From positions 64,738 to 128,737 of the IMG/VR virus record IMGVR_UViG_3300047388_000185: DNA of 64,000 bases; one strand, given 5' to 3'. The notes under the pieces were generated by a model. It ran no database searches, had not been told where the DNA came from, and worked only from the letters and a program-made list of their open reading frames with translations. Origin of the DNA: a virus (lineage: Duplodnaviria; Heunggongvirae; Uroviricota; Caudoviricetes). This document shows, one piece after another, positions 13,320 through 31,306 of this stretch (position 1 is its first letter; each line of letters starts with the position of its first letter). The translations under genes and the position numbers were made by a program.

Positions 13320-14106
13320 TCCGTGTTGAGCCTGATCCGTTCGTTCCTGGCTGCGTTGCGGCGGCTAGTTGCAAGTTTCGTTGAGCTACTTGAAGACTTG
13401 TGCCGTTAGCAATAGCATAGGTCTGACCTCCGACGATACTGGAGCTATATGCCACTGGCGTGGTTCCTAACTGATCCGACCGACCTAAGCCGAGATATGC
13501 TCCGATAGCAGCGGAAATGCGAGAGGGGAATGAGTTGTTATTCACGTCTCCTTTAAACATCCATCCGTTGGCGCTTGAAGCGGCTGCCTTAAATTTACTT
13601 TCGAGTACGACCATTTGAAGTAGCAACGCTTTTTCTAGGTTTGCATCTCCGAGGAAAGTAGCAACCAAATCGTCTCCTGGATTCACGCAAAGTGTTGCAG
13701 CTAAGTCAGGTCGAGCTGTCTCAATCAAACATCTTCCTGTCTTAGCGGAAGCGCCTCGAACCGAGTTGAGTCCAAGGCTTTGCCCCAACCCTAACGCCTG
13801 AATTCCAACATTAGCATTTGCCTTTTGAGTAGGATTTCCAGTAGCCAAAAGTTTCACTATCGCTGGGCTACTCAGATAATCTTTGGCCACGCTAGATGAA
13901 CCTGAAAGTACTGGCCCCAGAGCGTTAACATTTAAACGACTTTCGTAATACGCCTGTGAAATAAGGATTGAGGTAATATCAGTAACCTGTCCTAACGTCC
14001 CGGCAAAATTGCTTTTGACCTGCGAGTCGTATATCTGCCGCATCTTATTGCGCAGAGTAGTCGTATACCCAGCCTGTGCAACTACTGGCGTTGCGTCGGT
14101 AGCCAT
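13300..14106 (-). CDS. Lytic transglycosylase-like (SLT-fold) protein, possibly virion-associated
   Basis: SQAYYESRLNVNA matches the SLT catalytic-Glu motif, with a later GLGQ; TAATG stop/start overlap with the beta' C-terminal gene. Confidence 0.5.
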   Translation of the reverse strand: MATDATPVVAQAGYTTTLRNKMRQIYDSQVKSNFAGTLGQVTDITSILISQAYYESRLNVNALGPVLSGSSSVAKDYLSSPAIVKLLATGNPTQKANANVGIQALGLGQSLGLNSVRGASAKTGRCLIETARPDLAATLCVNPGDDLVATFLGDANLEKALLLQMVVLESKFKAAASSANGWMFKGDVNNNSFPSRISAAIGAYLGLGRSDQLGTTPVAYSSSIVGGQTYAIANGTSLQVAQRNLQLAAATQPGTNGSGSTRITPAGC

Positions 14107-15932
14107 TAGTACTTACCTTCTTTGCCTTCACCAAACTCATGACCCAGGACATACGATGTAATAGGACTGACCGAGTGAACATCGGACTCCGCCCCGACAG
14201 CAGCACTCTCTTTTAGCGTGTCACGTAGACGAGAGAAGGATAGCTTAGAGACCCAATCTCTGTCAAGCATCTTGGCGCTTTGCAAGCCCGGAACAATAGG
14301 GCGAACCTTGAGACCACTATTCGAGACAGAGACAGTCTTGACGCCGTCATCCTTAAGCTGCTGAATATGATTGGCATCCAGCAACGTTCCCGGAGTCAGG
14401 GAAAAGACACCCTTGGCTAGAACTTTTCCTTCGGCACGGTCAACAGGGAGCTCACTAGATTTAGTCTCAAGATACTTACGGACTTGATTGACGTCTACTT
14501 TTTCCCCAGGCAGGAAAGCAGTTTGACCTGGATCAACGATTTCTACATACTTGATTAGGTTCTTGGCAATCAACTCGAAGTGACGAGGATCCAAGCCACC
14601 CCCATAGATGTCACGCAGCTCTTTAGCCATATACTCTCGGCCAGCACCGATGCCACGCAGACCAACAAGGGTGCGAGGATTCAAGGTACCAGTTGAAAGT
14701 GGTTGACCAATTTGAACGTGATCCCCAACCTTCACTTTCAGATTCTGGTCAATGGGAACGAAGTGCATCTTCTCGTTGACATAAACGTGATTGTCGCCAA
14801 GGGCCGTTGGTCGGATAGCTGTGACTTCTCCGTTCAAGGTTGAAAGAGTGGCTTCATTTGTGAAGTTCTCAGAGGGGTTCGACAGCAAGTTATTTGCCTG
14901 CTCGTACGCATTACCCTTACGCTCGCCCACGGTTGCCTTATGCTTGGTTGAAAGCATAGCCTGGGTTAGAACTTCGGAAACGGACTGGGCTGCAATAACT
15001 CCAACGTTTGTTCCAATTTCTGGAAGAACTCGGTTGGCCATCAATCCAAAGCAACGTTGGCAAACTCCATCTTTCGCCTCGCAGGTCATCACACTTCTAA
15101 CGCCTACTTTCTTTACTCCATTTAGCTCTAGAGATTTCAGCTCATCATCATCAATCATGGTAGAGGTTCCGCGTAAGAATCTACCGAGCAAGCTCTTTTT
15201 ATCTGTGATGGGAACTGAAATACCATTCTTCGTGCCGCAATCCACGATTGTCACGACCTCGTGAAACACAGTGGGACTAAGTTTCTTGAACAAGGCTCCG
15301 GGAAGGGCCGTTGAAAGCTGGGATAGCACAGTAGAGCTTCGACCCATGTAGGAAAGGGCGATCATTTCTGCCGGGGTCATACCCTGGGCAAAAGAGTGTT
15401 TGATTACAACCGGAATCAGTTCACCCTTAACGTTCAAGGACATTAACGGCGTAGAAGTTCCTGAAGCCAATTGCTCCGGTTTACCACGAGCCCCAGAGCT
15501 GGCCATCATAGCCGCTGTTGAGCCCTTACCCAGAAGGAATGAAAGATTCTGGTCTGAGATCTTGGTGTTGTAGGAGCCAGTTAGATCAGTGAGTTTCTGG
15601 TTCTTAACTTGTTTTGTATCAGGCCCATTCAAGAGCAGATGGACTTTTGTATCGTATTCTTTAATCAAGGCATCTCGCTCATCAGAATCGTTGATGTAGT
15701 CGCTGAGAGGAGTGCTTGCACCAATTTCCGTCGCGCGTCCAAAGAAGGTCTTGGCCAGAGAATTGACATGCTCCATAGCCCCAGGTCCGCCGTGCTTTAC
15801 AAGGGTGCGAACAAGTTCAGCCATGGCTGGCTTATCCAGTGGGCGATAAAGCTCAAACGCGTCCTTGCTAGCCTGCGTCGGCATTTCGCTCTTCAGTTTG
15901 ATTGCACCGGGGGTCGTGAACTCATTTGCCAT
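14106..15932 (-). CDS. rpoC: Multisubunit RNA polymerase beta' C-terminal part
   Basis: SGARGK, IVDCG, CEAKDGVCQRCFG (Zn site), trigger-loop AAQSVSEVLTQAMLSTKH. Start placed at ATG 15932 (MANEFTT), which aligns with the beta' region following the middle fragment. Confidence 0.9.
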   Translation of the reverse strand: MANEFTTPGAIKLKSEMPTQASKDAFELYRPLDKPAMAELVRTLVKHGGPGAMEHVNSLAKTFFGRATEIGASTPLSDYINDSDERDALIKEYDTKVHLLLNGPDTKQVKNQKLTDLTGSYNTKISDQNLSFLLGKGSTAAMMASSGARGKPEQLASGTSTPLMSLNVKGELIPVVIKHSFAQGMTPAEMIALSYMGRSSTVLSQLSTALPGALFKKLSPTVFHEVVTIVDCGTKNGISVPITDKKSLLGRFLRGTSTMIDDDELKSLELNGVKKVGVRSVMTCEAKDGVCQRCFGLMANRVLPEIGTNVGVIAAQSVSEVLTQAMLSTKHKATVGERKGNAYEQANNLLSNPSENFTNEATLSTLNGEVTAIRPTALGDNHVYVNEKMHFVPIDQNLKVKVGDHVQIGQPLSTGTLNPRTLVGLRGIGAGREYMAKELRDIYGGGLDPRHFELIAKNLIKYVEIVDPGQTAFLPGEKVDVNQVRKYLETKSSELPVDRAEGKVLAKGVFSLTPGTLLDANHIQQLKDDGVKTVSVSNSGLKVRPIVPGLQSAKMLDRDWVSKLSFSRLRDTLKESAAVGAESDVHSVSPITSYVLGHEFGEGKEGKY

Positions 15933-15960
15933 AAGCCATAGTTTAGCGGAATAGAGCTGT

Positions 15961-16017: not shown

Positions 16018-17583
16018 ATGGTTGACTCCAGTAATAGAAACAATCCGCATGGACGCTTTCAGGCACCTATTCCCCGGCCGATGTCGAATAGTAGGGTAGG
16101 ATCTTCCTTAGTAGCCTCCTTAGTCGACAGAAGCAAGATTCTAATTCCACCAAAGCCTTCTAAATTCAAAATGCCTAAAGCTGCTAAAGTTCCCAGCCCA
16201 AAAGCGGACACAATGACTGAAGAGACTAAAGAGGCTATCCACCCGTTCATCCTCGAACATCGTGTCGGGACGACCGAACGCGTCACCTCTATGGACCCGA
16301 TGAGCGAAGGGTTCATCCGATCGTTGCGTATTCCCTATAAAGGGAAGTATTCGAATAAGGCCGTCCCGTCGACGGAACAGATCCCAGCCGGCATTCTCAC
16401 TGCTTTGATCCAGACCAAGATTTCTACGTTAATGCAGGAGGCGGTTCCTGGGACTGCATATATCACGGCCCTGCCACTGACTGATCTCGGGCGCCCTTGG
16501 AAGGCTGATGGCTGGATCGATCCCTCTTTTCGAATATCAACTGCTTGCGTTTTGAATCGACCGGGTAGAACCGTAGCGTTTTCAGCCTCAAAGGTCTTGA
16601 TGGAATGCTGGAGGTATCGTGAGCCTGACTTTGTTTGTTCGATAGATGTCAGTGGACGGCCCGTCCGAGCGACCCTTGTCAATAAGTTCGAAGCAGTCAC
16701 AGAGAAATTGATCTGCTATTCGTTCATCATGAAATATGATGCCGAGAAAGACGACGTGGTAGGGGGGATGCAAGACCTAGTCCATGTCTGGGTTAACGCT
16801 ACCTACTCTGCCAACTCCGGTCGAAGTCTACCGATGTATTTCGAAGAGGCAGGGGCTTACTCGTTCATCCTGAACGCAGTCACAGCCTGCCTGGGTTTGG
16901 AAATTGATGCGACGGGTGACGTTGCGTTACTTGCTGAGGGAAAAGTCGGCGTTCGAAGGACGGCTCTGAATAAGAATCAATGTTCGACACTACAAGCTCT
17001 CAATGTCCTGGTAGACTTTGGAAAGGTAGTGAACTCAGGAATTCCTCCTGCTTGGGGTGCCATGTCCAATGTAGACTGGCAAGGTATTGGGTTCGAACTT
17101 CAGCCTGGAGGCGTAGTCTGGAATGCGAGTGTGCAAACTTCTCATCTCCCCTGGCAAGTTCAAGCACATAGGGTGAAGTCCAACGGAGTATTTCCAGCTT
17201 CGATTAGACGCACTTTCGGAGTAGTAGGGGGAAGTCTCGGCGGAGCCAGGGCTTTATTTGAGCTGTCTCCATCAGCTCGAAAGCCTGTGATCTCCAAGTC
17301 AGTCGGGCAGTTGTTTTGGAATAATCTTAAAACCAATGACGATATTGATTCGTTTGATTCGGCAATCCGGGAATTGCGTACGGAGTACTTGACAGACGAG
17401 CTGATAGACGAGATGAAGAAGCTGGACGAAACCGTATCTGCAACAGAGCTCTTCGATGCGACTTATAACAGCTCGGATAAGCTGGGACGATTCGTATTCG
17501 AGAGAAGTCTTCCGGGGTACGTGAAACCGGTTGCTGTCGAGGCGAGAGTCGAGACTGTGGAAGCTCGAGAAACTTCTGATTGA
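16018..17583 (+). CDS. Large hypothetical protein (521 aa)
   Basis: Long ORF with a basic, Pro-rich N-terminus; no family recognised. Confidence 0.75.
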   Translation: MVDSSNRNNPHGRFQAPIPRPMSNSRVGSSLVASLVDRSKILIPPKPSKFKMPKAAKVPSPKADTMTEETKEAIHPFILEHRVGTTERVTSMDPMSEGFIRSLRIPYKGKYSNKAVPSTEQIPAGILTALIQTKISTLMQEAVPGTAYITALPLTDLGRPWKADGWIDPSFRISTACVLNRPGRTVAFSASKVLMECWRYREPDFVCSIDVSGRPVRATLVNKFEAVTEKLICYSFIMKYDAEKDDVVGGMQDLVHVWVNATYSANSGRSLPMYFEEAGAYSFILNAVTACLGLEIDATGDVALLAEGKVGVRRTALNKNQCSTLQALNVLVDFGKVVNSGIPPAWGAMSNVDWQGIGFELQPGGVVWNASVQTSHLPWQVQAHRVKSNGVFPASIRRTFGVVGGSLGGARALFELSPSARKPVISKSVGQLFWNNLKTNDDIDSFDSAIRELRTEYLTDELIDEMKKLDETVSATELFDATYNSSDKLGRFVFERSLPGYVKPVAVEARVETVEARETSD

Positions 17584-17608
17584 CTGAGAGTGCGGGGAAG
17601 ACTAAAAT
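17580..17608 (+). promoter_or_regulatory. sigma70-like promoter TTGACT-N17-TAAAAT, 6 nt before the ATG
   Basis: TTGACT GAGAGTGCGGGGAAGAC TAAAAT CCGGCC ATG. Confidence 0.65.
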
Positions 17609-17614
17609 CCGGCC

Positions 17615-19189
17615 ATGGCCTGTGATTCTAAGTCTTTTCCCGCACCTTCTTTTTTAGGCAACGTGTACCTAACCAAGGCAGCGGCAATTCTGGCTGAGAA
17701 GGGTAAGGCTACGGTGAGCCGGATGGCGGCCGAGGTTGCGCCGGAAGCGGTCAAGCAGAGGAACACGAAAGGTGAGGGTTTGCAGCCTCATCAGGAAGAG
17801 GCTCTGAAGAGACTCGAAAGTTCTGGCGGATTGATTTTGCACCATTCGACGGGGTCCGGTAAGACTAAGACGTTCCTCACGGCCATCCAACGTTCAATGG
17901 AAGCGGACAAGAAGAAGCGTGCTCTCGTTGTAGCCCCTGCTAGTCTTGTCATGAACATTGACAAAGAGCTTGAAAAGCATAAAATCAAATTGGATCGTAA
18001 TCGCTTGGACGTGTACTCGTACGAGAAAGCCACGCGCATGGCGGATGAGCTCGGTAAGAATAAGTATTCAATCGCCGTAGCTGATGAAGCCCAGCGGCTC
18101 CGCAATCCCGGGACTCAACGAGTTAAGGCTTTATCCGACCTGATGCGTAGCGCTGACAGGCGTCTGTTAGCCACTGCTACGGCACAGTACAATCAGCCTG
18201 GTGACCTTGCCCCGCTGATTAACATCGCAGCCGATGACGACCTCATGCCGGAAGATAAGAAGGCATTCGAGAACCGCTATCTGAAAAAGGTCCTCAAGAG
18301 CCGCACCATGTTGCAGGTTCTAATGCGCAAGGCTCCGGAAGAGTCCATCGAGTTGAAGAACAAAGACGAGATGCGAGACATCTTCGATGAATACGTTCAT
18401 CACTATGATGCCAAGGATGATCCTGCTGCCAAGGATAAATTCCCAACTGTCACAGATGAAGTAATTGAAGCTCCTATGGACGCTGAGCAACGTAAAGCTT
18501 ATGCGTTCATGGAAGGCCGCATGCCCTGGTGGATTAAGCAAAAAATACGCTTTAATATGCCGATGGATAAGAAAGAGAAATCTCAACTCAATAGCTTCTC
18601 TTCCGGCGTTAGACAAGTATCTACAGGATATCGACATTATAATCAAGATCCGAATTCTGTTGCATATACCCCGAAGATTGAAATGGCCGTAGCTAATCTA
18701 GAGAAGAAGATGCATGAAACCAAGGATTTTCGAGGTCTAGTATACTCTGGCTTCTTAGATGCCGGTGTCAACGAATATTCACGGAGGCTAAAAGAAAGAG
18801 GGATAAATCATGCTACATTTACTGGTGCCTTATCCGCCGAACAGAAGGATGCCCTAGTCAAAGACTATAATGCAGGTAAAAATCCCGTTCTAGTTGTTTC
18901 TAAAAGCGGGGCGGAGGGTCTTGATCTAAAGGGAACGAGACTCACCCAGGTGCTTGATCCATTCTTCAATGGATCGCTTACGGAACAGGTTGTAGGTCGA
19001 GGAGCTCGCTATGAGTCTCACAGCCATCTTCCGAAAGAAGATCGAAATATGCATATTGAATATTATCGTACCGTACACCCCAAACATCTTCTAGGCCGAA
19101 CCCCGACCTCTATCGATCAGTACCTTGCGGATAATTCCGATGACAAAGCGCAAATTTTCGATAAGGTCAAAAAACTAATGGACAATTAG
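17615..19189 (+). CDS. SNF2-family (SF2) helicase/ATPase
   Basis: Walker A HSTGSGKT, Walker B VADEAQ, LATAT, GAEGLDL, motif VI QVVGRGAR. Confidence 0.9.
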   Translation: MACDSKSFPAPSFLGNVYLTKAAAILAEKGKATVSRMAAEVAPEAVKQRNTKGEGLQPHQEEALKRLESSGGLILHHSTGSGKTKTFLTAIQRSMEADKKKRALVVAPASLVMNIDKELEKHKIKLDRNRLDVYSYEKATRMADELGKNKYSIAVADEAQRLRNPGTQRVKALSDLMRSADRRLLATATAQYNQPGDLAPLINIAADDDLMPEDKKAFENRYLKKVLKSRTMLQVLMRKAPEESIELKNKDEMRDIFDEYVHHYDAKDDPAAKDKFPTVTDEVIEAPMDAEQRKAYAFMEGRMPWWIKQKIRFNMPMDKKEKSQLNSFSSGVRQVSTGYRHYNQDPNSVAYTPKIEMAVANLEKKMHETKDFRGLVYSGFLDAGVNEYSRRLKERGINHATFTGALSAEQKDALVKDYNAGKNPVLVVSKSGAEGLDLKGTRLTQVLDPFFNGSLTEQVVGRGARYESHSHLPKEDRNMHIEYYRTVHPKHLLGRTPTSIDQYLADNSDDKAQIFDKVKKLMDN

Positions 19190-19212
19190 TTAAATTTAGA
19201 ATAGAATTAATT

Positions 19213-19878
19213 ATGGAAGATTTAGTAGCTAAGGCAGAAAAAGCTAAAAGAACAAGGCGAGCTAATCAAGCATTTAATGAATCTAGAAGAAGTGAATTGG
19301 AGTCACCGGAATTCCAGTCCCGAATAAAAAGATGCACCGGATGTAAAATCTTAAAGACTTATGCTAATTTTAGATTTGAATTTATAAAAATCGATGGGCA
19401 TGAATCTCGCTGTAAACAGTGTTGTTCCACAAAAGAAGCTGAGTTTAGAAAAGTAAATCTAGGGGCTCAAAAGAAGAATAATGAACGCTGCAAAAAACAC
19501 CGTGAACAAAACCCAGAATATTATAAAGAAAATTCTAGAAATTATAGATTAGCTAATCCTGAGAAAACAAAATCTTATAAGAAAAATTGGGTAGATATTA
19601 ATCGAGGAAAAGTATATGCAGATAACGCTGCAAGACTAGACTATATTGATGCGGTAACCCCCTCATGGGCTGATCAAGTAGCGATAGAAGCTGTCTACAT
19701 ATATGCTCAACTATGGAGCATTTTGACTAAAGTCAAACAAAGTGTTGATCATGAAATCCCCCTTAGAGGAAAAGAAGTTTGTGGTCTTCATGTCCAAAAT
19801 AACTTAAGAATTATGCCGTTAATTCCCAACATCTCCAAAAACAACAAGTTCGATCCCGACACCTTCATCGGCCCTTGA
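19213..19878 (+). CDS. Free-standing HNH homing endonuclease
   Basis: CTGC...CKQC N-terminal Zn module; TPSWAD...VDHEIPLRG..VCGLHVQNNL...NISKNN; markedly AT-rich. Confidence 0.85.
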   Translation: MEDLVAKAEKAKRTRRANQAFNESRRSELESPEFQSRIKRCTGCKILKTYANFRFEFIKIDGHESRCKQCCSTKEAEFRKVNLGAQKKNNERCKKHREQNPEYYKENSRNYRLANPEKTKSYKKNWVDINRGKVYADNAARLDYIDAVTPSWADQVAIEAVYIYAQLWSILTKVKQSVDHEIPLRGKEVCGLHVQNNLRIMPLIPNISKNNKFDPDTFIGP

Positions 19879-19884
19879 TCTAAA

Positions 19885-19913
19885 TTACATAATAATGCAT
19901 TTCCTGGTATAAG
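19885..19913 (+). promoter_or_regulatory. Class I promoter variant
   Basis: TTACATAA-N12-TGGTATAAG. Confidence 0.55.
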
Positions 19914-19948
19914 ACATTACAACCAAGTACATCATAGAGTAACCGGGG

Positions 19949-20804
19949 ATGATCATGATTACTACTCAAACACTGAGAGACTTCGAGCGTCTTTGGGCTC
20001 GGCGTGGAACGTTCCATGTAGACCTGTCGTATGGACAAGCTTTGGCCCAGTACACCCTGTGTACCAAAGACGATCCCGATTACTTGTTTTTAGTAACTGC
20101 TAAGTACCAGCCTGTCTCGGTCTGGATTCAGGAAAAGATCGATGCCAATACGAAAAACCAAGCGCAAGCCTCTGATCATTCCGGCAACCAGGCCGCACAC
20201 AAGAACACCCATTAAGCCCGTCAGTCGTCATAAAGACGACAAGAACGATTACGTCCGGGCTCCTAAGCATCGGAAGAAACCTGAACCAGACTGCTCTCGC
20301 AGTCTTTTGTTTTAGTAGGAGAGAGAAGTGTATATTGCCGTAGAGGGTCAAGACCCGTTAGACCAGAACATTCAAACTGTTGTGCTCATAACGTTGGACG
20401 AAGCTGCTGACTTGTATGAAGAGTTGGGTAAGATCTTCGGACCCAGAGAAACTGTCATTGCTCCGAAAGACGTGGCCACTCCGATGCCCCCGTTCCCAAA
20501 GATCGACGTGCCGCCGTTGAAGAATGAACCAGTGCCGGGAACGGAAAAACAGAAGACATTGGCGGACTTCATCAAGGAGATGGAGGAGCGAAAGAAAAGC
20601 GAACCTTACAAACCGTTCGAAAATCCCCGTTGGCCGACGTGGGATCCGAAGTCACCGCTGAATCCGACGTGCTTCACGAGGTGGCCCACTCTCCCGGGCG
20701 GATCTTATGACCCCAAGTTCACCGCAGCTGCCGTAGTTGACTGGACCAAAGTCAATCAGAACAACTTCCCCGCCTCCTCCGATCACTACCTCACCCCTCT
20801 GTAA
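19949..20804 (+). CDS. Small hypothetical proteins (19949-20215, 20142-20315, 20328-20804)
   Basis: Consecutive ORFs after the promoter. 20142-20315 (MPIRKTKRKPLIIP..., 57 aa) is below the track cutoff and has an AGGA SD. Confidence 0.5.
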
Positions 20805-20816
20805 GAAAGGCCATCA

Positions 20817-22181
20817 ATGAGCTCGCACCATCACCCTGGCGTCGTCCACCAATCCAAAGACCTCTTCATCCCCGGCTCGCCGAACACGTCGGTTGAACAC
20901 AAGAAGCTGCCAGTCGGCACGTACCTCGTTGGTATCAGCCCACAAGGCTACTACTGCGAGCGCGTCGACAACATGACGTTGCCGAAGAAGCTGTATGGCT
21001 CGATCATCCCGGCTGCAGCTCGAATCGTCAATACATTCAAGACTCGCAAGGGCAACACCGGTACCCTCCTGTCGGGCTTGAAGGGCTCTGGCAAGACGTT
21101 GCTGGTTAAGGCAGTTTCCCTCCTTCTGCTGGATGAAGGCATCCCGACGATTATCATCAATCAGCCCTTCAGCGGCGATGCTTTCTCCCAATTCCTTGCG
21201 GCGCTGAACACTCCGTTCGTGGCTCTGCTGGACGAGTTCGAGAAGGTCTACGACGCCGATGATCAAGAAAAGCTCCTGACCCTTCTGGATGGCGTTCATC
21301 AAGGTAAGGGCCTGTTCATGCTGACTTGTAACAAGCAACACAAGGTCGACGAGAACTTCATCAATCGGCCGTCGCGGATCTTCTACAACCGCCATTACAA
21401 GGGTATGGAGATCGATGCGATTCGTGAACTGGCGCTCGACACGCTCAACGACAAGAAGCGCGTGGATGAAATCGCCAAGCTCTCCTCCCTATTCAATGAC
21501 GAGATGAACTTCGACATGGTTCAGTCGGCCATCGAAGAAGTCAATCGTTATCCCGAGCAGAAGATGTCCGAGCTGATGGAGATGATGAATCTTCGTCCGG
21601 CTGGAATCGATCAGCGCTATCGATATACGGCTATCTTGCAAGTAGCGGGCAAGACGTACTCGGACGAAGGCGTGTTCCCTCGGGAGGCGGCGATCTCTAT
21701 CTTCTCCTTCGCCAATTTCCGTTTCCTCGTCCGTGACGGTTTCTCCGACGAAGAGCGTGAAGCGGGTGCTGGTACGGATATCAAGGCAAAGGCTTCGATC
21801 CAAGCTGTTCCCGCCCAGGAAGTCGCAATCGGCGGTATGCAGATGGATACAGAGCAGATTTCCAAGGCTATTAAGAGGGCCAAGAAAGCCCTTAAGAAAG
21901 CCTCGGAACTGGATCCTGATGATGACGAAGTCAAGTACGATCAGAATCGGGCCAAGCTCGGTGACGATTACGATGACGTCTGGGAAACCTGGGGGCACGA
22001 CTTCCGCCACTACGGCAAGAAGCGCAACGTCAAGGAATTCACTTTTTCACATCGTCAGATGAAGGGAAGCGATCCCAAGAAGGGTACGTACACGTTCGTC
22101 TCCGACGGCGGCGCAGTACTGATTCTGACCCGAGTCGTAGAAGCTGGGATGAGAACCTCGGACTACTACGATCTCCTGTGA
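20817..22181 (+). CDS. AAA+ ATPase
   Basis: Walker A LLSGLKGSGKT, Walker B LLDEFEK, sensor TCN, arginine finger NRPSR. Confidence 0.88.
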   Translation: MSSHHHPGVVHQSKDLFIPGSPNTSVEHKKLPVGTYLVGISPQGYYCERVDNMTLPKKLYGSIIPAAARIVNTFKTRKGNTGTLLSGLKGSGKTLLVKAVSLLLLDEGIPTIIINQPFSGDAFSQFLAALNTPFVALLDEFEKVYDADDQEKLLTLLDGVHQGKGLFMLTCNKQHKVDENFINRPSRIFYNRHYKGMEIDAIRELALDTLNDKKRVDEIAKLSSLFNDEMNFDMVQSAIEEVNRYPEQKMSELMEMMNLRPAGIDQRYRYTAILQVAGKTYSDEGVFPREAAISIFSFANFRFLVRDGFSDEEREAGAGTDIKAKASIQAVPAQEVAIGGMQMDTEQISKAIKRAKKALKKASELDPDDDEVKYDQNRAKLGDDYDDVWETWGHDFRHYGKKRNVKEFTFSHRQMKGSDPKKGTYTFVSDGGAVLILTRVVEAGMRTSDYYDLL

Positions 22182-22202
22182 TGTAAGCTGGCCAGTGTCA
22201 GG

Positions 22203-22545: not shown

Positions 22546-22575
22546 TTCAATAACGAAAGGTATTTATGGTACAAG
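22546..22575 (+). promoter_or_regulatory. Class I promoter
   Basis: TTCAATAA-N13-TGGTACAAG. Confidence 0.65.
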
Positions 22576-22631
22576 AAGATAAGGACAACTGTGTTGCTCC
22601 GACGCCCGTAAACCCTTACCAGGAAAATACC

Positions 22632-23489: not shown

Positions 23490-23977
23490 GCACGGCCGAG
23501 GTGATACCAATCGCCTCGGCCAATGCGAATCCTTCTCTTTGCACGCCGTGCGGGGGGAAGTGTTGTTCGCATATGCCCGGAACGATGTTTCCTCTCGAAC
23601 TGTCGAAAACTCTTGACCGCGAAGAGATCTTCATCAAGGTTCATGACCTTCTTTTGACGGGGAGATGGGCCATTGATTGGTGGGAGGGTGACCCGGAAAT
23701 AGAGAGTCATTGGGATGGTGTCCCTGCCTATTATCTCCGTCCGGCAACGAAGCGGATGCAGGGCTACTGGGCTGATGCAAGCTACGGCGGAGACTGTACC
23801 TTCCATGCTGCAACTGGCTGTGAATTGTCCGAAGTAGAACGGCCGACGGACTGCAAGACACTGATTCCACATGAGACAAATTGCCATCAACCGGAGAGCT
23901 GGAGCAAATTCTCTGGTATAATGGCATGGTACCCATTTCGCTCGGTCCTCCGAGCCATGCTTCAATACGAACCTTAG
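23486..23977 (+). CDS. YkgJ-like Cys-cluster (Zn/Fe-S) protein
   Basis: CxxCGGKCC near the N-terminus and C...GC..x.RPxxC later. Confidence 0.7.
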   Translation: MSTAEVIPIASANANPSLCTPCGGKCCSHMPGTMFPLELSKTLDREEIFIKVHDLLLTGRWAIDWWEGDPEIESHWDGVPAYYLRPATKRMQGYWADASYGGDCTFHAATGCELSEVERPTDCKTLIPHETNCHQPESWSKFSGIMAWYPFRSVLRAMLQYEP

Positions 23978-23986
23978 GGATATAAC

Positions 23987-24829
23987 ATGAAAAAGCTCTT
24001 CGTTCTTCTGTTGCTCGCCTTCGCTTCGGCATTGGCAAGTGCAGCCGAACCCATCTGTAACTGGGATCGTCCCGGTTTCAACAAGTACCAAGGTAAGCCG
24101 GTCGACGCTTTGCGGGACTATACTTTGAACTACCAAGTTCGAGCAGTCCTTCAGGTCAAGATACGAAATCAGATGTATGATGACGTTGTCGAGATCCGTC
24201 GTGATGGAATCAAAGGCTCAACTGGCACTTTCAGCAATTTAAGAGGAATGCATTATGGTCAAGGATCGTATTGTCCCGGCAGTGTCGACACGGGAAACTG
24301 GACTGAGACACAAGTGGAGCGTGCCTTGGTCTACTGTGTCGCTGAGGTTTGTGTTGCTGTGCCCACGATATGCAACAACGTCTCTCTCATTGACCGAGAC
24401 ACGCCGATCGGTATCTCACCTTCGGCAGGGAGTTCCCCAACGGGTGGAGCTCCGCAGTCTAGCATCAATCCGAGCCCGGAACAACCTGGATCTGAACTTG
24501 GAGCGGCCGTATCTCAAGAAGTTTCGAGATCGGATTCGCTCGTGGAACAGCCCGCTGAAGAAGGACCGGGATCCGAACTATCTCCAGACGTGGTTCCCGG
24601 CGGATTCGGAGGCTCGGGAGGTGGCTACGCAGGCGGAGGTGACTTCGGAGGTGGCGGCGTCGTGCTACCAGGACGTTCAACGTCTCCCCCCATCTGTCCC
24701 GGACTTAATTGCGGATTGAATCCTCCAGTGATCACGCCAATCCCAGCTGTCCCAGAAATTCCCGAATGGATTTTGATCGTTGCGGGACTGATTTGCTTTG
24801 CATGGCGGATGAGTACGAGGCAAAAGTGA
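23987..24829 (+). CDS. MHFG-family PEP-CTERM-type exported protein
   Basis: Signal peptide; CNWDRPG...YDDVVEIRRDGI...MHYG...ERALVYC....VPTICNNVS core; Gly/Pro/Ser linker; C-terminal PAVPE + hydrophobic helix + RMSTRQK. Confidence 0.8.
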   Translation: MKKLFVLLLLAFASALASAAEPICNWDRPGFNKYQGKPVDALRDYTLNYQVRAVLQVKIRNQMYDDVVEIRRDGIKGSTGTFSNLRGMHYGQGSYCPGSVDTGNWTETQVERALVYCVAEVCVAVPTICNNVSLIDRDTPIGISPSAGSSPTGGAPQSSINPSPEQPGSELGAAVSQEVSRSDSLVEQPAEEGPGSELSPDVVPGGFGGSGGGYAGGGDFGGGGVVLPGRSTSPPICPGLNCGLNPPVITPIPAVPEIPEWILIVAGLICFAWRMSTRQK

Positions 24830-24831
24830 GC

Positions 24832-24860
24832 AAACGGGGCCCTAAACCCCGTTTCTTTTT
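24832..24860 (+). terminator. Intrinsic terminator
   Basis: AAACGGGG-loop-CCCCGTTT-CTTTTT. Confidence 0.7.
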
Positions 24861-24878
24861 GAATACAAAGGAGTCAAC

Positions 24879-25781
24879 ATGCGAAGTGATGTGAATAAGG
24901 TTTTGACGGAGTGCTACAAGGAAGGCACTGGCCGACATTACCAATTCCCCCGTCAAACAATGGACAAGCTCTTCGATGAGACAGGCGGTAAGATTGGTAT
25001 GCGTCAGGTGCATGTCAAAACCCCAAAGCATGGGACTAAATCCTTTGGAGAGAACCTTGCTTATCTTCCTAGGTTTTTGGCTGCCAACGTCGGCCGTAAG
25101 TGGGATGATATCTACTCCGAGATCGCTGCGACTTTCGATAAGCGCAGCACGGTCAACGCTCACATCTTCCAGCATCTGTTCGACTACTTCGTGCCGGCCC
25201 ACGAGGTGATCTTCATTAGAAACCGGCCACACGCAATACACATCTATTCGCGTCAGGCCTATCCAATCTATTCCGGGGGATATCGAGGTCTTTACGTAGA
25301 TCCTCGCAGCGGCATCCTGAAAGAGGGGATGAAGGAGTCGAATAAATCTAAACAAACCAAGGCCCAAGTAGCGGCCAAGAGTCTTCTGGAATTCAAGCGC
25401 ATCTTATCTCCTCTTGTTGAGCTACACAAATTGGATGATGGGATGTGGTACGTTTTCGAACTGAAGAAGATCCCGTCCGAACGCATCGTCGAGTATGTCT
25501 ACGCCCCGCCTTTCCCTAAAGATTTCGACAGTCAACAGGAATGGTATAAGGGAAAGAAGGAGTTCGATCTGTCGTCGAAAGAGGTCAAGACTGCTCTAGG
25601 TCGGCGTGTGGAAAAGGCGGTGGAGTTCAAGACGTTCAACAACAAGATCGAATCGAATCGTCAGTCTCAGCTTGTCAATCGCCCATACAATCGAGACACC
25701 CGTAGTTATGGTGTCGCCACCCATTACTACGCCTCCATGCGCAGCGCTTCCAAGAAGGAATTGCGGACAGTGGGGCTTTAA
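24879..25781 (+). CDS. Hypothetical basic protein
   Basis: 300-aa ORF with AAGGAG SD; ENLAYLPRFL...GRKWDDIYSEI...HIFQHL motif. Confidence 0.7.
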   Translation: MRSDVNKVLTECYKEGTGRHYQFPRQTMDKLFDETGGKIGMRQVHVKTPKHGTKSFGENLAYLPRFLAANVGRKWDDIYSEIAATFDKRSTVNAHIFQHLFDYFVPAHEVIFIRNRPHAIHIYSRQAYPIYSGGYRGLYVDPRSGILKEGMKESNKSKQTKAQVAAKSLLEFKRILSPLVELHKLDDGMWYVFELKKIPSERIVEYVYAPPFPKDFDSQQEWYKGKKEFDLSSKEVKTALGRRVEKAVEFKTFNNKIESNRQSQLVNRPYNRDTRSYGVATHYYASMRSASKKELRTVGL

Positions 25782-25789
25782 GGATTTCA

Positions 25790-26356
25790 ATGAAAAAGAT
25801 CATGTCACTGTTTCAGCGCAACTACGAAGGCAACCGCAAAGTTCGTGACCAAGTCACTCCTGGCGCCGAATGGGTTACCGCCGGAGAGGGAGTCGCCACC
25901 CGAAAGTGGGATGGCTTGGCCATCCTCATCAAGGATGGGGCCATTTTCAAGCGATACGATGCCAAGACGGGTCGTACCCCTCCGGCTGGATTCGTGCCTG
26001 CTCAGAACCTGCCGGACCCGGTCAGCGGGCATTGGCCTGGCTGGGTTCCTACGGATGGGCCGGACTCGAAGTTGATCCGAGAAACTGTTGCTGCGCATCC
26101 CGGAGAAGTCACGGATGGAACCTACGAAGTTTGCGGGCCGAAGATTGGCACTCGTCACGGCCCCAATCCAGAAGGCTTGTCGCAGCATATCATCGTGCCA
26201 CACGGTAAAGACCTTCTCGAAGACTGTCCTCGGACCTACCCGGAGCTGATGGCCTATCTGAAGGACCTGGGCATCGAAGGAATCGTCTGGCACCATGAAG
26301 ACGGTCGTCGGGTGAAGATCAAGAAGGTAGACTTTCCATACCAGGAGAAAGCATGA
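25790..26356 (+). CDS. Putative RNA ligase, DUF5565/RLIG1(C12orf29)-like nucleotidyltransferase
   Basis: Motif I TRKWDG, FKRYDAK, PDPVSGHWPGWVP, motif III YEVCGPK, motif IV EGIVWH, motif V VKIK. Confidence 0.7.
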   Translation: MKKIMSLFQRNYEGNRKVRDQVTPGAEWVTAGEGVATRKWDGLAILIKDGAIFKRYDAKTGRTPPAGFVPAQNLPDPVSGHWPGWVPTDGPDSKLIRETVAAHPGEVTDGTYEVCGPKIGTRHGPNPEGLSQHIIVPHGKDLLEDCPRTYPELMAYLKDLGIEGIVWHHEDGRRVKIKKVDFPYQEKA

Positions 26357-26676
26357 CACACATTCGAACAATCGGCGAGAAGCTGGCCAAGAAGGGTTTC
26401 AAGTTGATCCTCCTCCAGCAAGGTCCAAATACTCAGCTTGATCTTGGCTATGACAAAACGCTAGCCACCGGAGAACTACTTCAACTAGAGCTTAAGCAGG
26501 CTTCAACGTTCTATCATTCGACGGTCACTTGTACGGCCGAGATGTCAAAGTGGTTTGGCCGCGAAAAGAGGAGTGTCAGGATCGAACTCATTGGAGCTGA
26601 CGTAGAGGAGAGAACCGTGCTGATGTTAGAAGACCGTCTTCGTCCCCTATGGGTTGTTATTGCTGCCGAAGCTTGA
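26353..26676 (+). CDS. Hypothetical protein
   Basis: ATGA overlap with the upstream gene; converges on the beta' middle gene. Confidence 0.6.
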   Translation: MTHIRTIGEKLAKKGFKLILLQQGPNTQLDLGYDKTLATGELLQLELKQASTFYHSTVTCTAEMSKWFGREKRSVRIELIGADVEERTVLMLEDRLRPLWVVIAAEA

Positions 26677-27802
26677 TTGGCGTATTGACCGTCACAGTTC
26701 CAGCTTCCAGAGCTTTCAGCACGTCAGCTTCAGAGTCAAACTCTTGCACTTCCTGTTTCATATCAGGGTCCGTTAGGTTCATGGAGCCAATAATGGCTTC
26801 ATGTCCTGGCGCAACCAAAGAAGCTCCTAAGCCCTTACGGTAGTCGAACGCATGTTGTTCGGGAAGGAGTTTCTTTTTAGCTTCTTCAATCGCTTCTGGG
26901 GTAATAGGGGTATGAATGGTCATAGCATCACCGTCGAAGTCACCTGCATAGAGTGGCAAGTGTAGGGGGTTAACGCCAAGCGTCTTACCTTGAATCGGTA
27001 CTGGAAAATGCGCGGTGATATTTGATTGCATCAGCGTTGGGGCACGATTGGCAATGATCGGAATAGTCTTGATCAACTTGTTAAAACTAGTCTGGGCAGC
27101 GGGAGTCCGAGCTTCTACTGCTTTCTTTGCATCTGGATAGGAATAGCCATTACGAGCTAAATCACGAATGATGTGGAACTTGTACATGGTCCAAATCATG
27201 TCGATGGGTACGGCCATTTCATTGAAGCCGAGATTAGGCTCAGCGTAGATCGTGGCACGAGCCGAGAAGTCTTGTTTCTTCTTCAAAATCTTGGCTTGAA
27301 AGAACCCACCTTTAGGACCCTTCTCTCCGGCAATCTGCTGTAGAAAACCCTTCAACTGAGCTCCCCGAGCTGTACCCTTCAAAGCTGTACCAAGACCGAA
27401 GATGGCCTTGACGCCGTTATATGCACCAGCACGCTCATCTTTGACGTCATCATTTTCAGCTCCTTCTTCGAGAAGACCCTGAAGCCCCTGATTAACCAGG
27501 ATGTGATTCTGATATAGGACGTTGACGTCAGGGTATTCAATGCGATTGCCAGCCTGAGTGATAGGCGGCCGAGCCATCGGAGGAATCACTGGAATATTGT
27601 GTAGTATGAAGGAGTCAGCAGGAGTCTCCCCGTTCTTCTTCAGTCCAGCCAAGTACTTAATCTGCTTGACCATCGTATCCCGCTTGGAGATAGACTTCGT
27701 AGCCAAGATATCTTTCTTCAAGTGCATTAGTTGCTGATCAATGTCAACAGCATCTAAAAGTTCTTGGAAGGCATGGCCTGAGGTCTTCAGTTCTGTGGTC
27801 AC
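26657..27802 (-). CDS. rpoC: Multisubunit RNA polymerase beta' middle (catalytic) part
   Basis: IPVIPPMARP, KKQDFSARATI, NRAPTL, catalytic YAGDFDGDAM (NADFDGD equivalent). Confidence 0.93.
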   Translation of the reverse strand: MTTELKTSGHAFQELLDAVDIDQQLMHLKKDILATKSISKRDTMVKQIKYLAGLKKNGETPADSFILHNIPVIPPMARPPITQAGNRIEYPDVNVLYQNHILVNQGLQGLLEEGAENDDVKDERAGAYNGVKAIFGLGTALKGTARGAQLKGFLQQIAGEKGPKGGFFQAKILKKKQDFSARATIYAEPNLGFNEMAVPIDMIWTMYKFHIIRDLARNGYSYPDAKKAVEARTPAAQTSFNKLIKTIPIIANRAPTLMQSNITAHFPVPIQGKTLGVNPLHLPLYAGDFDGDAMTIHTPITPEAIEEAKKKLLPEQHAFDYRKGLGASLVAPGHEAIIGSMNLTDPDMKQEVQEFDSEADVLKALEAGTVTVNTPIKLRQQ

Positions 27803-30800
27803 TTAATTATCCTTGTCAAACACGTCGTCTTCGATTTCTTCATCTTCTGGTTCATCCGCAATATCGGGACGATTCTTGAATTCATTTACTTTGAAACTAC
27901 GAATCTTGGTCCCGGTCGTGATGTCATGAAGATGGAATGTGTCACCTTCTTTTTTAACTCCGACAGAGCCAGTTGCAATACCCTCGTACTCTTTAGTTGA
28001 AAGACCAAGTACAGACTTTATTGGCTTCTCGAAAACTGGATTAGCGACGGGCTCAGCTAAGTGGTAATGGGTCCAGTTAGTTCCACGTAGACCACCAGTT
28101 GTAATGGTATCAAATAAGCCACCTTTATCCGGCTCCAAGTTACGGGCATTGATCATCTCGCCGTTGCGAATTCTACCATGAGATTGACTAAGAATATCTG
28201 AATCAGTCATAGGAGAAGCTGTGAGTTTCCCATCACGCAAAGTCGTCTTGATGCCAGACGCGGTCAAGTAATCGATGAACTTATTCGTAGCAAAGGTTGT
28301 CTTGGGCTTGGGTAAAGGTTCACCGCGTTGGAACTTCGCCCAGAAGTCTTCATTGGACTCCGACTTAGTCGTGGCAATTTCTTTTAAGTTCTTACGGGCA
28401 TTAGAGCCAAGCAAACCTAAGAATTCCATGTAACCGATACTCTTTGAGCCTTCTTCACCACCCTTAGTCGGCTGATTGACATTGTCATATCCACCAGTAT
28501 TACGGGCAGACCAGTTCTGGTCGGAGGTCTTGTAGAGCTTGATGAAGTATTGCGGTCCCGCCAGGACTTGACCCAGTGTCTTCTTGGTCGTCGGATCTAC
28601 GAGCTCATCTGTATCTGAAATCCCATGCTTAGCCAATTCTGCCTTCAATTCAACAACGTTCGAGCCCTTGTCGAAGTTATGAACTAAGTACGGCGAACCT
28701 TTAACCTGAGCAATCTTGGCCGCAGCAGTTTCCATCAGTTGCCCGAGATTCACTCGAGATGTGACAGAGGCGGGATTAAGCAGAATATCTACAGGTTTGC
28801 CAGTCTCTTTCTTATAGGGCATGGATGTATCCGGAAGAATCAAAGACACGATCCCCTTGTTGCCATGCAGACCAGTCAGCTTATCTCCGACTTCAAGTGG
28901 CTTGACTGAGCGTAGAATGAAACGAACTTGGCGAGTAGCAGTGTGCGCGTCAACGACCTTGCCATCTTCATCGTGTTGCCACAGACCAACGACCTTCTTC
29001 CAGGGACGAATCAGAGTTTTGTGCATACGACCAAGAGCCTTATCTTCTGCAGTTGGCTCTTTCTTCTCGAGCACAGCGTAGCAGGGATCTCCGTGATGCA
29101 GGACTGAGCCTACCTTGGCATAGCCATTGTCGTCCAATTTATCTAGTTGTTCTTTGGTGAATTCACCTGGGAACCAACGGGCAAATAGTGCTTTCTTGGC
29201 CGTCGTGATATCCGTCACGTCGTAGTCAATCTTATATGCGTGATGTGAGGATAGGGATTCTGCACAAGATTGGGATAGGACTAATCCGTCCTCGTGGTTA
29301 TATCCCTTCCACGGGATGTAAGCCACTTCCAGGTTTTTGCCCAAAGCCAAGACTCCGTCCTTTGTGTAATTGGACTCGAACAACTGGTGTCCCGGGGTAA
29401 CATGGTCGCCGACCTTAACCAATGGGGTCTCATCGTCATGGAATCCTTTCATGTTAAAGGGTAGATTTTTCACAGCTTTGACTAGCACAGCTTTGCCTCC
29501 GCCCGTGGGTTGAATGGTCACGCCATTACGGTCAGCCTTAATAACTTCCCCGTCTATCGGGGCAACTGTTCCTGTAACGCCGGCAAGTTGCTTGACGAAG
29601 GGGATACCTTGAGCATTCGTAGTCTGAACGAGAGGGACTTCTCGGTTCACCAAAGACAGGGCCTGGGGGATGGCCTTGCCAGCCATAGTCAAACGGCCTG
29701 GATGGTTCGAGTTTAAGAAGGGCACGAGATTAGTCGTGACCGTATACATGTCAGTCGAATCATAGAGCCAGTAGTCAACCTTGTCCCGAGCGATCTGACC
29801 GAGTTCCCCTTTGATCTGAGCCTGAACGGGATCTTCCCCGTCTTGGTTCGGAAAACCGACGATCTTGGTCATCATCTCGTGGACGGAGATGTTTCTGACT
29901 TTGCCAGCCTTATCCTTTACTCTGGCGTAGAGATTTCCCTCAGCGTCTCGACTAGCTGATACAGTAAAGCGCTGGTCGATACCAGCATGCCCAGATTCAG
30001 GTGTCCGACTAGGATCGATAATGCCAAGATGGCTAGGATCGATGTCTCGAGCTCCCATGGGTACGCCGCGATCTGACGCGATACCGCCTTCGCCTTGTCC
30101 AAGCACAGTAACTTTAGCAACATTTTCGATAGACTCCAGAGGATTGGTTTCAGACGGGGTTGTGACCAAGTTCGAGGCCACGATGTAATTAGAATAGAAC
30201 TTAGAGAAAGGCTTGGTCGACAGATTACCCTTGAGCTTGGGATCTGTCTGCGGAATCCGGTCAAGCTCCCGACCCAAACGGTTCTTAATCAGCTTGACAA
30301 CTTGGTGCTCCTTGGCAAAACGGGTCGTCAAGAAGTCAGGTAGATTCTGGACTCGCTTGAACTGCAGGCTATCTCGGTTATCTTCCTGACGTTCATGCCG
30401 ACGGGTCTGAATCAGATTGCGCATGGCAAGCAGGATCGCGTCCTTCGTCACGGTAGCGATAGGCTGACCGAGAGTAGACGCAGTTGTGCGAGTATTCAGC
30501 TTCGAGCTCTCAAGGCGTTCCTTTAGCTGATGCGCCATAACTTCCGGTGAAGCTCCGACGACCCGCTCACGGGAATCAACAAGCTTCAAGTACATATCCT
30601 TGAGGTACTTGTCTTCTTTCCCAGTAACAGCTTTTTGATTGGCTTCCCAAACATCTGCTGGGATATAAGAAGAGATCTCTTTACCACTTACTCCGAAAAC
30701 CTTTGTCAGCAAAGCACCAATAGGAATTTGAGACGTGCTGTTACCCGGAATCAAGTAGAACATGTACGTTTCGGGATCGAGCGTCAAGTGTAAAGATGCA

Positions 30801-31306
30801 CCGGAGCCAGTATTGAAGTGGGTCTCGAGTTCGCCTGTCTCCTTGGTACGGGTATATACGCCGGGGAGCAATTGGAGTTGATTGGCTGCAGCGTAGTTGT
30901 TTCCCTTATACAGCAGGGTATGCTTTCCGGTAATGTGAAAAGAATCCATCAAAGAGAAGCCTGGTTGTTCATCTACAACTTGGCCCGTAGTCTTATCGAT
31001 CAGCTTCAAGTCAGCCTTGATCGGATAAGTCAAACTACGACTTTCCAGGATGGCCTTCTTTTCATCTTCGTGGGTGTAGTCCTTGCGCTCAGCACGGAAG
31101 TTCTCAGCGGTCAGAATGTAGTTGCGGCCTTCGACTGGAAACTGGGTGGCTAGACCAGAGATCAACGCGGCATCAACCTTGTTATTCATGTCTGCAGGGG
31201 ACGAGAAGATACGGGTCAACTTAGGACGGGTTACTGCATCGCCTACTGCAGGAATAGCAGCCTGAGAAACGGCTACGGTTTCATCAGCTCGCTTAGTAAA
31301 CTTCAT
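27803..31306 (-). CDS. rpoB: RNA polymerase beta subunit fused to the beta' N-terminal segment
   Basis: TPESGHAGI, YIPWKGYNHED, GDKLTGLHGNKGIVS, LLNPASVTSRVNLGQ, then LTASP..I...SHG.I...INARNLEPDKGGLFD...HYHLAEPVANP (beta' N-terminal pattern). Start moved to ATG 31306, which overlaps the upstream TGA. Confidence 0.92.
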   Translation of the reverse strand: MKFTKRADETVAVSQAAIPAVGDAVTRPKLTRIFSSPADMNNKVDAALISGLATQFPVEGRNYILTAENFRAERKDYTHEDEKKAILESRSLTYPIKADLKLIDKTTGQVVDEQPGFSLMDSFHITGKHTLLYKGNNYAAANQLQLLPGVYTRTKETGELETHFNTGSGASLHLTLDPETYMFYLIPGNSTSQIPIGALLTKVFGVSGKEISSYIPADVWEANQKAVTGKEDKYLKDMYLKLVDSRERVVGASPEVMAHQLKERLESSKLNTRTTASTLGQPIATVTKDAILLAMRNLIQTRRHERQEDNRDSLQFKRVQNLPDFLTTRFAKEHQVVKLIKNRLGRELDRIPQTDPKLKGNLSTKPFSKFYSNYIVASNLVTTPSETNPLESIENVAKVTVLGQGEGGIASDRGVPMGARDIDPSHLGIIDPSRTPESGHAGIDQRFTVSASRDAEGNLYARVKDKAGKVRNISVHEMMTKIVGFPNQDGEDPVQAQIKGELGQIARDKVDYWLYDSTDMYTVTTNLVPFLNSNHPGRLTMAGKAIPQALSLVNREVPLVQTTNAQGIPFVKQLAGVTGTVAPIDGEVIKADRNGVTIQPTGGGKAVLVKAVKNLPFNMKGFHDDETPLVKVGDHVTPGHQLFESNYTKDGVLALGKNLEVAYIPWKGYNHEDGLVLSQSCAESLSSHHAYKIDYDVTDITTAKKALFARWFPGEFTKEQLDKLDDNGYAKVGSVLHHGDPCYAVLEKKEPTAEDKALGRMHKTLIRPWKKVVGLWQHDEDGKVVDAHTATRQVRFILRSVKPLEVGDKLTGLHGNKGIVSLILPDTSMPYKKETGKPVDILLNPASVTSRVNLGQLMETAAAKIAQVKGSPYLVHNFDKGSNVVELKAELAKHGISDTDELVDPTTKKTLGQVLAGPQYFIKLYKTSDQNWSARNTGGYDNVNQPTKGGEEGSKSIGYMEFLGLLGSNARKNLKEIATTKSESNEDFWAKFQRGEPLPKPKTTFATNKFIDYLTASGIKTTLRDGKLTASPMTDSDILSQSHGRIRNGEMINARNLEPDKGGLFDTITTGGLRGTNWTHYHLAEPVANPVFEKPIKSVLGLSTKEYEGIATGSVGVKKEGDTFHLHDITTGTKIRSFKVNEFKNRPDIADEPEDEEIEDDVFDKDN

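Follow-up and report, generated by a model that had tools for sequence, protein, structure and literature searches.

A predicted bacterial-type phage RNA polymerase encoded in three genes, with the start of beta-prime fused to beta

The 64,000-nucleotide stretch analyzed here (the window) covers bases 64738-128737 of a complete 192,737-bp phage genome in IMG/VR (record IMGVR_UViG_3300047388_000185), which has direct terminal repeats. Three genes on its minus strand probably encode one functional, phage-owned RNA polymerase (RNAP) core of the bacterial type, predicted to consist of three polypeptides. The first chain would contain beta covalently joined to beta-prime ~17-130, the second beta-prime ~175-553 with the Mg-binding DFDGD loop, and the third beta-prime from ~570 to the end, including the bridge helix and the trigger loop. 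A previous sequence-only reading of this DNA had described such a polymerase, re-cut into a beta::beta-prime(N) fusion, a catalytic middle piece, and a distant C-terminal piece. The open reading frames (ORFs), the Pfam domains, and the structure mapping agree with this division. The reading had also considered that the same split might be the standard layout of an already characterized phage family. Judged from gene maps of relatives, the layout is standard in a large clade of uncultured phages, which is uncharacterized. The features of the polymerase genes are as follows.

ATG 31306 to TAA 27803-27805, minus strand: gene 1, beta::beta-prime(N), 1167 amino acids (aa); the ORF is open from a TTG at 31399.
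28237..31306, minus strand: beta part of gene 1 (residues 32 to ~1054 of protein P0001), with Pfam Rpb2_6 (PF00562, 184 bits) and Rpb2_3.
27806..28236, minus strand: beta-prime tail of gene 1, equivalent to residues ~17-130 of Escherichia coli beta-prime minus the Cys4 zinc ribbon, followed by a clade-specific beta-hairpin insertion and an acidic end (profile and structure alignment).
27800..27816, minus strand: boundary of genes 1 and 2, with AAGGA at 27814-27810, TAA at 27805-27803, and an in-frame GTG at 27802-27800.
26657..27802, minus strand: gene 2, beta-prime middle piece, 381 aa, GTG start, with the clamp helices and the catalytic double-psi barrel (Pfam Rpb1_2, Rpb1_1).
14106..15932, minus strand (ORF to 15992; in-frame ATG at 15932): gene 3, beta-prime C-terminal piece, 608 aa (Pfam Rpb1_5).

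The beta portion of gene 1 is one uninterrupted reading frame with a complete C-terminus, and residues 560-1049 of P0001 align with bacterial beta chains of known structure almost as far as their C-terminus. The end of beta (…KFIDYLTASGIKTTL) is followed by a link of four residues and then by the beta-prime-like sequence LTASPMTD…GGLFD…HYHLAEPVANP. The junction had been placed near 28230 in the sequence-only reading. When the tail was used as a single query, beta-prime residues 14-52 were matched weakly (E 0.05). With a profile of 38 homologous tails, residues 15-56 were matched in dozens of beta-prime chains of known structure, representing several phyla (E ~2e-4). PHROG family 25354, a beta-prime-like profile of 1,216 positions, matched the tail at 15-56, gene 2 at 172-539, and gene 3 at 857-1102. 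Tail and middle piece, which form one continuous ORF in most relatives, were translated through the TAA and modeled as a single chain with AlphaFold using an alignment of 31 natural fusions. The model displayed a mean predicted local distance difference test score (pLDDT) of 83.7, with disorder confined to one loop and to the acidic linker that surrounds the stop. Its residues 5-530 align to E. coli beta-prime 16-553 (Z ~24, 470-480 residues, 27-28% identity) as well as to the cyanobacterial gamma subunit 8-561, and the best Foldseek match was the gamma subunit of Synechococcus (E 4e-36). The last ~145 aa encoded by the beta ORF are derived from the beta-prime N-terminus. An origin of these residues (~140 in the sequence-only reading, which regarded it as the counter-case) outside beta-prime is contradicted by both the profile match and the structural alignment score.

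The four-Cys zinc-binding domain described as absent is indeed missing. No N-terminal Cys4 zinc ribbon was found in the tail, in which ~15 Cys-free residues lie between GGLFD and HYHLAEP compared to ~47 residues in E. coli. The loss is family-wide, as the ribbon is lacking in 32 out of 32 aligned family members. In bacteria, the beta-prime zinc ribbon is located at the RNA exit channel, near the promoter spacer and sigma. The loss suggests altered contacts in initiation and termination. Nearly all beta+tail proteins of the clade (120 homologues) end in an Asp/Glu-rich run of 10-25 residues (window 27806-27950, minus strand). This run is disordered in the model and could be a linker remnant or a functional acidic tail.

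Gene 2 corresponds overall to E. coli beta-prime ~175-553. Its residues 6-345 match E. coli 179-515, and up to ~553 in other species (phmmer against PDB, E 1e-40). In the catalytic loop AGDFDGD, the three aspartates (D437, D439, D441) do not vary among 32 family members, unlike the first two positions of the motif; the family consensus is NADFDGD. Gene 3 covers beta-prime from ~570 to the end (phmmer against PDB, E 4.5e-42) and has no SI3 insertion. It comprises the bridge helix, the second Zn site with four Cys (VDCG, MTCE, GVCQRC), the trigger loop with its His in TKH, and the jaw/cleft. The clamp helices in gene 2 are diverged from the bacterial sequence and the bridge helix in gene 3 is diverged as well, as noticed in the first reading. 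The same applies to the remote position of the C-terminal piece, which had been estimated at about 10.7 kb beyond an oppositely oriented island: 10,724 nt separate genes 2 and 3, and this interval is occupied by plus-strand ORFs.

The middle piece ends at gamma ~553-561 of the 617-626 residues of the cyanobacterial subunit. Residue 26 of gene 3 corresponds to beta-prime ~570 and residue 50 to residue 6-13 of cyanobacterial RpoC2, and thus the second break of the phage protein lies ~50-60 residues upstream of the cyanobacterial split. It is located in the same inter-domain region (beta-prime ~553/570), not at the gamma/RpoC2 junction itself. The beta-prime split of phiKZ/AR9 has been placed at the cyanobacterial point in a review (PMC7598289). 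The earlier statement that phiKZ/AR9-type enzymes are split at other points thus holds fully only for the first break and for beta.

A detail beyond the first reading is that genes 1 and 2 share one reading frame and are separated by the TAA alone, with AAGGA 7 nt 5′ of the GTG. Both pieces might be a single gene as in the cultured phage Arash. In this case, the TAA would stem from an error in sequencing or assembly or from a recent mutation that inactivates the gene, or it would be a stop that is recoded or read through. Arash and related Vibrio phages carry a continuous ORF of 1,525 aa, and some relatives in the wider family are TGA-recoded, both of which, like the common frame with its lone stop, are in line with a single gene. 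However, among the 323 protein clusters found with gene 1, the best 120 (62-93% identity) are all 1,106-1,178 aa long and end at the homologous point (120/120), after a motif like GVKKEGDTFHLHD..TG.KIRS..VN plus an acidic run. A scan of IMG/VR with the tail profile identified 338 viral contigs, and beta+tail is an ORF of its own in 31 of the best 80 loci. The middle gene can be seen in 21 of these 31, either overlapping in a different frame or lying at distances of up to 8 kb downstream. Pieces 1 and 2 are separated by a 75-aa gene in L009, a relative with 62% identity, and abut as in the window in L010, a relative with 93% identity. The Shine-Dalgarno sequence AAGGA ahead of the GTG also speaks for a separate translation start. 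All three polymerase genes end in TAA, which is therefore the normal stop in this phage. Furthermore, the context TAAG makes for strong termination in E. coli, which counts against a single gene. Because the break is common to 120/120 of the closest clusters and 31/80 loci, it is real and not peculiar to this genome. On these comparisons, which largely refute a single gene and leave it a very small probability, the break between genes 1 and 2 is a conserved gene boundary and not an error.

Signs of further insertions and of recoding were seen in and around polymerase genes of relatives. Directly after the beta-prime middle gene of L010, a gene for IS605 OrfB/TnpB (Cas12f-like) is located (7277-8605); mobile elements settle at such gene boundaries. 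In the Vibrio phages D181 and D148, the beta match falls into two parts, and the annotation of this region includes a homing endonuclease and additional small ORFs, which points to an insertion of the intron or intein type in the polymerase gene. In L125 (4923-10694) and L129 (4872-10778), the fusion frame is interrupted by in-frame TGA alone (three and two, respectively), with no TAA or TAG; both look like TGA-recoded phages with the same polymerase.

The distribution of the family was determined in a full HMMER scan with gene 2 against 1.84 billion cluster representatives, which gave 1,058 hits at E ≤ 1e-30. Mapping of five segments on the best 150 clusters (clustered at 50% identity) revealed the following arrangements.

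79/150: beta+tail+middle fusion ending after the middle piece (Arash type).
43/150: complete beta::beta-prime fusion of 2,000-2,900 aa.
16/150: middle piece alone (some of these are fragments).
7/150: middle+C.
5/150: tail+middle.

The remaining 49 loci among the best 80 of the IMG/VR tail scan comprised 40 beta+tail+middle fusions and nine full fusions, and another scan retrieved ~25 further full beta::beta-prime fusions. In some distant relatives, the full fusion is a single protein of 2,000-3,000 aa. The gene contexts of the fused family are phage-like. In a maximum-likelihood tree of the middle region, the clade of the window is sister to the Arash/Vibrio-type fused sequence (100/98), and this pair is sister to another fused form (100/99). 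Common to these three lineages is an insertion of 45-70 residues (a three-strand hairpin and a linker) between the tail and the equivalent of 'GAEAI', and the stop codon of the window clade is positioned within the acidic end of this insertion. The tail+middle model aligns to Thermus beta-prime 5-869 but to E. coli 16-553; the insertion site corresponds to the surface loop that holds the large non-conserved domain of Thermus beta-prime, a place at which bacterial beta-prime likewise accepts insertions specific to single lineages. Since fused forms dominate the nearest clusters, the sisters in the tree are fused, and the insertion is shared with fused forms, the beta::beta-prime fusion is probably ancestral and the breaks are secondary. 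In the window clade, the gene broke within the insertion linker, and in many members its two parts have moved away from each other since then; a separate, older break after the catalytic barrel set off the C-terminal half. Only one case is counted as an independent second split, a free-standing middle gene of another lineage (P0180 in L193), which is sister to a fused form (100/100) and has an unrelated gene ahead.

Other candidates were rejected. P0174, which is truncated at the contig end, and P0133, an ambiguous case, were not counted as independent splits. Three middle+C proteins were considered as a two-gene intermediate; P0143 is 5′-truncated, and the contigs of P0134 and P0263 lack beta. 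A scan with P0134 alone for a beta+tail/middle+C layout found nothing.

The first two polymerase genes are part of a portal operon. The minus-strand block contains, in one direction, the portal gene, a 100-aa ORF, the beta::tail gene, and the beta-prime middle gene, and it is separated from gene 3 by the island. The neighboring features are given below.

31623..33506, minus strand: portal gene (PHROG portal families phrog_2739, E 1.6e-10, and phrog_16240); its position matches that of the Arash portal gp204, and it heads the block with the first two RNAP genes.
31303..31605, minus strand: 100-aa ORF in the portal/beta interval; its stop overlaps the beta start (ATGA).
16018..26676, plus strand: oppositely oriented island of 13 ORFs (Pfam and PHROG scans, as for the next three).
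17615-19189, plus strand: SNF2-type helicase in the island.
19213-19878, plus strand: endonuclease VII-like protein in the island.
20817-22181, plus strand: AAA ATPase in the island.

The start of gene 1 is likely the ATG at 31306, which overlaps the 100-aa ORF as ATGA. Pfam and PHROG scans with this ORF gave no match. It is syntenic in Arash (gp205), Vibrio phage D69, L009, and L010, with weak sequence conservation (PGM motif), and its product may be a small protein associated with the portal or with the polymerase. The SNF2-type helicase is encoded in the island that adjoins the beta-prime C gene, and a similar helicase is present in the same island of the 93%-identical relative. In phiKZ-like phages, SNF2 helicases have been noted in linkage with polymerase genes, and a RapA-like role was suggested for these helicases (Iyer et al. 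2021).

Two types of promoter-like sequence were detected. The sequence TGGTATAAG, which resembles an extended −10 element, occurs in 11 exact copies in the window, all on the plus strand, compared to 7.5 expected even when one mismatch is allowed. Three copies (15981-15989, 19905-19913, and 25542-25550, plus strand) are located in the island, and there are eight further sites. The three copies are predicted to drive the island (early-promoter genes) between pieces 2 and 3. No copy precedes the polymerase genes in the window. A sigma-70-like sequence TTGACC-N17-TACACT is located at ~33545-33575 (minus strand), ~25-55 nt upstream of the portal start codon, and is a candidate promoter of the portal-polymerase block.

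The search of the complete genome proposed by the sequence-only reading for a second RNAP set, sigma, and alpha revealed a single set (one match each for Rpb2_6 and Rpb1_2), two sigma-70-family genes, and no alpha. With its intact beta, the single set, and beta-prime matches down to E 1e-40, the enzyme is distinct and more bacteria-like, as had been supposed. The first reading had recognized no alpha, omega, or sigma in the window. This was confirmed, and alpha and omega were found nowhere in the genome. For alpha, the 192.7-kb genome contains no match to PF01000 or PF01193 at E up to 10. The only PF01192 match for omega (15.9 bits, with an internal TAA) was rejected as an HNH-endonuclease-like ORF. 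Both sigma genes are located outside the window, and their presence fits the assumed need of a phage specificity factor. P0274 shows 43% identity to the Arash virion protein gp10 and belongs to a family of >200 protein clusters; P0275 shows 41% identity to Arash gp196, with Sigma70_r2 and r4 above the Pfam cut-off. Sigma70_r2 was also detected in 5/5 complete relatives, of fused and split types alike, and the annotated records of Arash and D69 carry sigma genes.

Within the proposed three-chain polymerase, a delivery and recognition mechanism can be outlined. The polymerase would be made late, alongside the head proteins and in the same gene class, and would be packaged in the virion, as indicated by mass spectrometry of Arash. 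The injected enzyme would start early transcription, finding its promoters via phage sigma-70-family factors on sigma-70-like sequences (TTCAAy...TGGTATAAG). P0274, the gp10 orthologue, would travel in the virion, and P0275, the gp196 orthologue, would act on a different class of genes. Neither the alpha dimer nor omega would be required, because the covalent beta::beta-prime link is proposed to take over the role of the assembly platform. Virion delivery, sigma dependence, and alpha independence are deduced mainly from the proteomics of one relative and from gene content. In purified Arash virions, gp206 ranks first and gp216 fifth in total spectral counts, the count of gp206 being above that of the major capsid protein, and the sigma-like gp10 is present (PMC10585845). 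The polymerase genes are situated within the portal/head block in every relative examined.

Several points weigh against this mechanism. The Arash authors allow for abundant late proteins as contaminants of the preparation (PMC10585845). The virion association derives from this one proteomics study of a relative with 54% identity, and activity, assembly, and packaging in the present phage are predicted from the genes alone. A very divergent alpha-like protein or the use of host alpha would be compatible with the negative result at the Pfam level. A phmmer search with both phage sigmas against all ORFs of the 80 related loci returned one weak match. Sigma genes are common in large phages without an RNAP of their own and may serve the host core enzyme. 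Furthermore, the clamp helices, the main docking site of sigma, are diverged from the bacterial sequence, and the zinc ribbon, which is close to sigma and the spacer DNA in bacteria, is missing. A complex prediction of P0274 residues 70-297 with the beta-prime middle piece scored 0.27, below the mark of 0.32, and speaks neither for nor against the mechanism. In favor of sigma use, one tight linkage of sigma and polymerase genes, the sole one seen, is present in L028 (8637-12607), in which a 977-aa beta-prime (middle + C, no tail) is followed after 3 nt by a 344-aa sigma-70 gene.

Two other explanations have to be considered. The polymerase could be a non-virion enzyme that is made during infection for middle and late genes, with host RNAP responsible for early transcription, possibly redirected by the phage sigmas. 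The early and replication promoters look like ordinary sigma-70 extended −10 promoters that the host could read, and the sequence upstream of the portal-RNAP block is canonical (TTGACC-N17-TACACT); the contamination allowed for by the Arash authors is consistent with this explanation, too. It is, however, considered rather unlikely in view of the first and fifth rank of the Arash polymerase pieces among the virion proteins and of the portal/head block location in all relatives examined. There is also a single RNAP set, so a packaged enzyme would have later stages to serve as well. Slightly less likely still is a sigma-independent enzyme like that of phiKZ/AR9, which would use an unrecognized phage factor or its own promoter recognition, the phage sigmas acting on host RNAP alone. 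The diverged clamp helices, the lost zinc ribbon, and the lack of linkage between sigma and RNAP genes in 79/80 loci are in favor of such an enzyme, and the phage multisubunit RNAPs known so far rely on factors other than sigma (PMC7598289, PMC13282480). In contrast, a sigma-like protein accompanies the polymerase in Arash virions and has orthologues in >200 clusters of the phage group; sigma genes are present in 5/5 complete relatives, in the present genome, and in the Arash and D69 records; one lineage has a beta-prime-then-sigma operon; and the promoters are of the sigma-70 type.

The closest known polymerases are those of Arash (gp206 + gp216) and of the Vibrio phages D69, D148, and D181, which are orthologous with 54% and 49% identity over beta, respectively. 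They share the fusion of beta to a zinc-ribbon-less beta-prime start, the same hairpin insertion, the separate C-terminal gene, the synteny of portal, small ORF, and beta, and orthologous sigma genes. In Arash and the Vibrio phages, beta+tail+middle form one gene of ~1,525 aa next to a C gene of ~606 aa, i.e., two pieces, whereas the window clade has three. In the Arash paper, gp206 is named beta and gp216 beta-prime, with no word on a fusion (PMC10585845). In database records, the polymerase genes of Arash and the Vibrio phages are annotated just as 'beta subunit' or 'hypothetical'.

The phiKZ/AR9 polymerases are likewise composed of phage beta and beta-prime homologues without alpha and omega, with beta-prime broken after the catalytic barrel, and one form is packaged in virions (PMC7598289, PMC7824862). 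In contrast to the present phage with one set and an intact beta, these phages have two sets and a beta in two or three pieces. No beta::beta-prime fusion has been described for them, and they have no sigma homologue, whereas a fusion and two sigma-70-family genes are found here, and their enzymes are far more diverged from bacterial RNAP than the present one. Reviews of jumbo-phage RNAPs treat the phiKZ/AR9 type only, and RNAP-encoding jumbo phages are said to lack sigma.

The mReC phages (Weinheimer and Aylward 2020) are also uncultured large tailed phages with a bacterial-like beta and beta-prime, found by standard profiles. Their selection required a beta-prime no shorter than 800 aa that carries NADxDGD; beta and beta-prime are tabulated as separate genes, and for these phages the paper says nothing of sigma, fusion, or splitting (PMC7481178). 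The present polymerase differs from this description with its 381-aa catalytic piece, AGDFDGD, and a beta that is not a separate gene. With the mReC selection criteria, the fused family would have been filtered out of the 2020 survey. Identity with mReC was rejected: in a published mReC contig (L152, 149,482 bp), beta-prime (900 aa) is followed by an unfused beta (1,069 aa) without a detectable tail, and the identity to a query made up of middle + C beta-prime proteins of the fused clade is ~25%. The mReC phages are therefore a different clade.

Cyanobacterial and plastid RNAPs (gamma/RpoC1 + RpoC2) also have a beta-prime divided after the catalytic barrel. Unlike the phage, cyanobacteria keep the zinc ribbon, alpha, and omega, beta is not fused to gamma, and the break is situated 50-60 residues later. 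Natural rpoBC fusions are known from Helicobacter and Wolinella and engineered ones from E. coli; in all of them, the beta C-terminus is joined head-to-tail to the beta-prime N-terminus, and both termini are neighbors in the enzyme. These fusions are cellular and have a full-length beta-prime, the zinc ribbon, alpha2, and omega, whereas the phage lineage adds the loss of the ribbon and secondary breaks at new sites. Literature searches for a phage beta::beta-prime fusion found no description in the papers covered, which is not proof of absence.

A wider interpretation is put forward tentatively, with somewhat less than even confidence. The polymerase may represent a third independent class of phage multisubunit RNAP in phages of ~170-195 kb, virion-delivered and sigma-dependent, with the fusion replacing the alpha dimer and omega and with the gene re-broken at least two times independently. 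If this is true, the class would take in hundreds of uncultured phages in addition to the cultured Arash and Vibrio D69-type phages. Such an enzyme would be self-sufficient, a minimal transcription machine of the bacterial kind with at most three core chains plus sigma.

Rather than a new kind of system, the polymerase is a variant form of phage multisubunit RNAP that belongs to the regular, conserved gene content of a large lineage on which hardly any work exists. This lineage is far more bacteria-like than phiKZ/AR9 and apparently uses sigma-type promoter recognition without an alpha, an omega, or a beta-prime zinc ribbon of its own. Its cultured members (Arash on Salmonella, D69-type phages on Vibrio) offer a natural system for asking what alpha and omega are needed for, what part the zinc ribbon plays in initiation and termination, and how sigma docks on a remodeled clamp. 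The natural series of one, two, and three chains, formed by fusion and then by repeated fission at surface loops, bears on the evolution of RNAP subunit boundaries and on the annotation of such genes.

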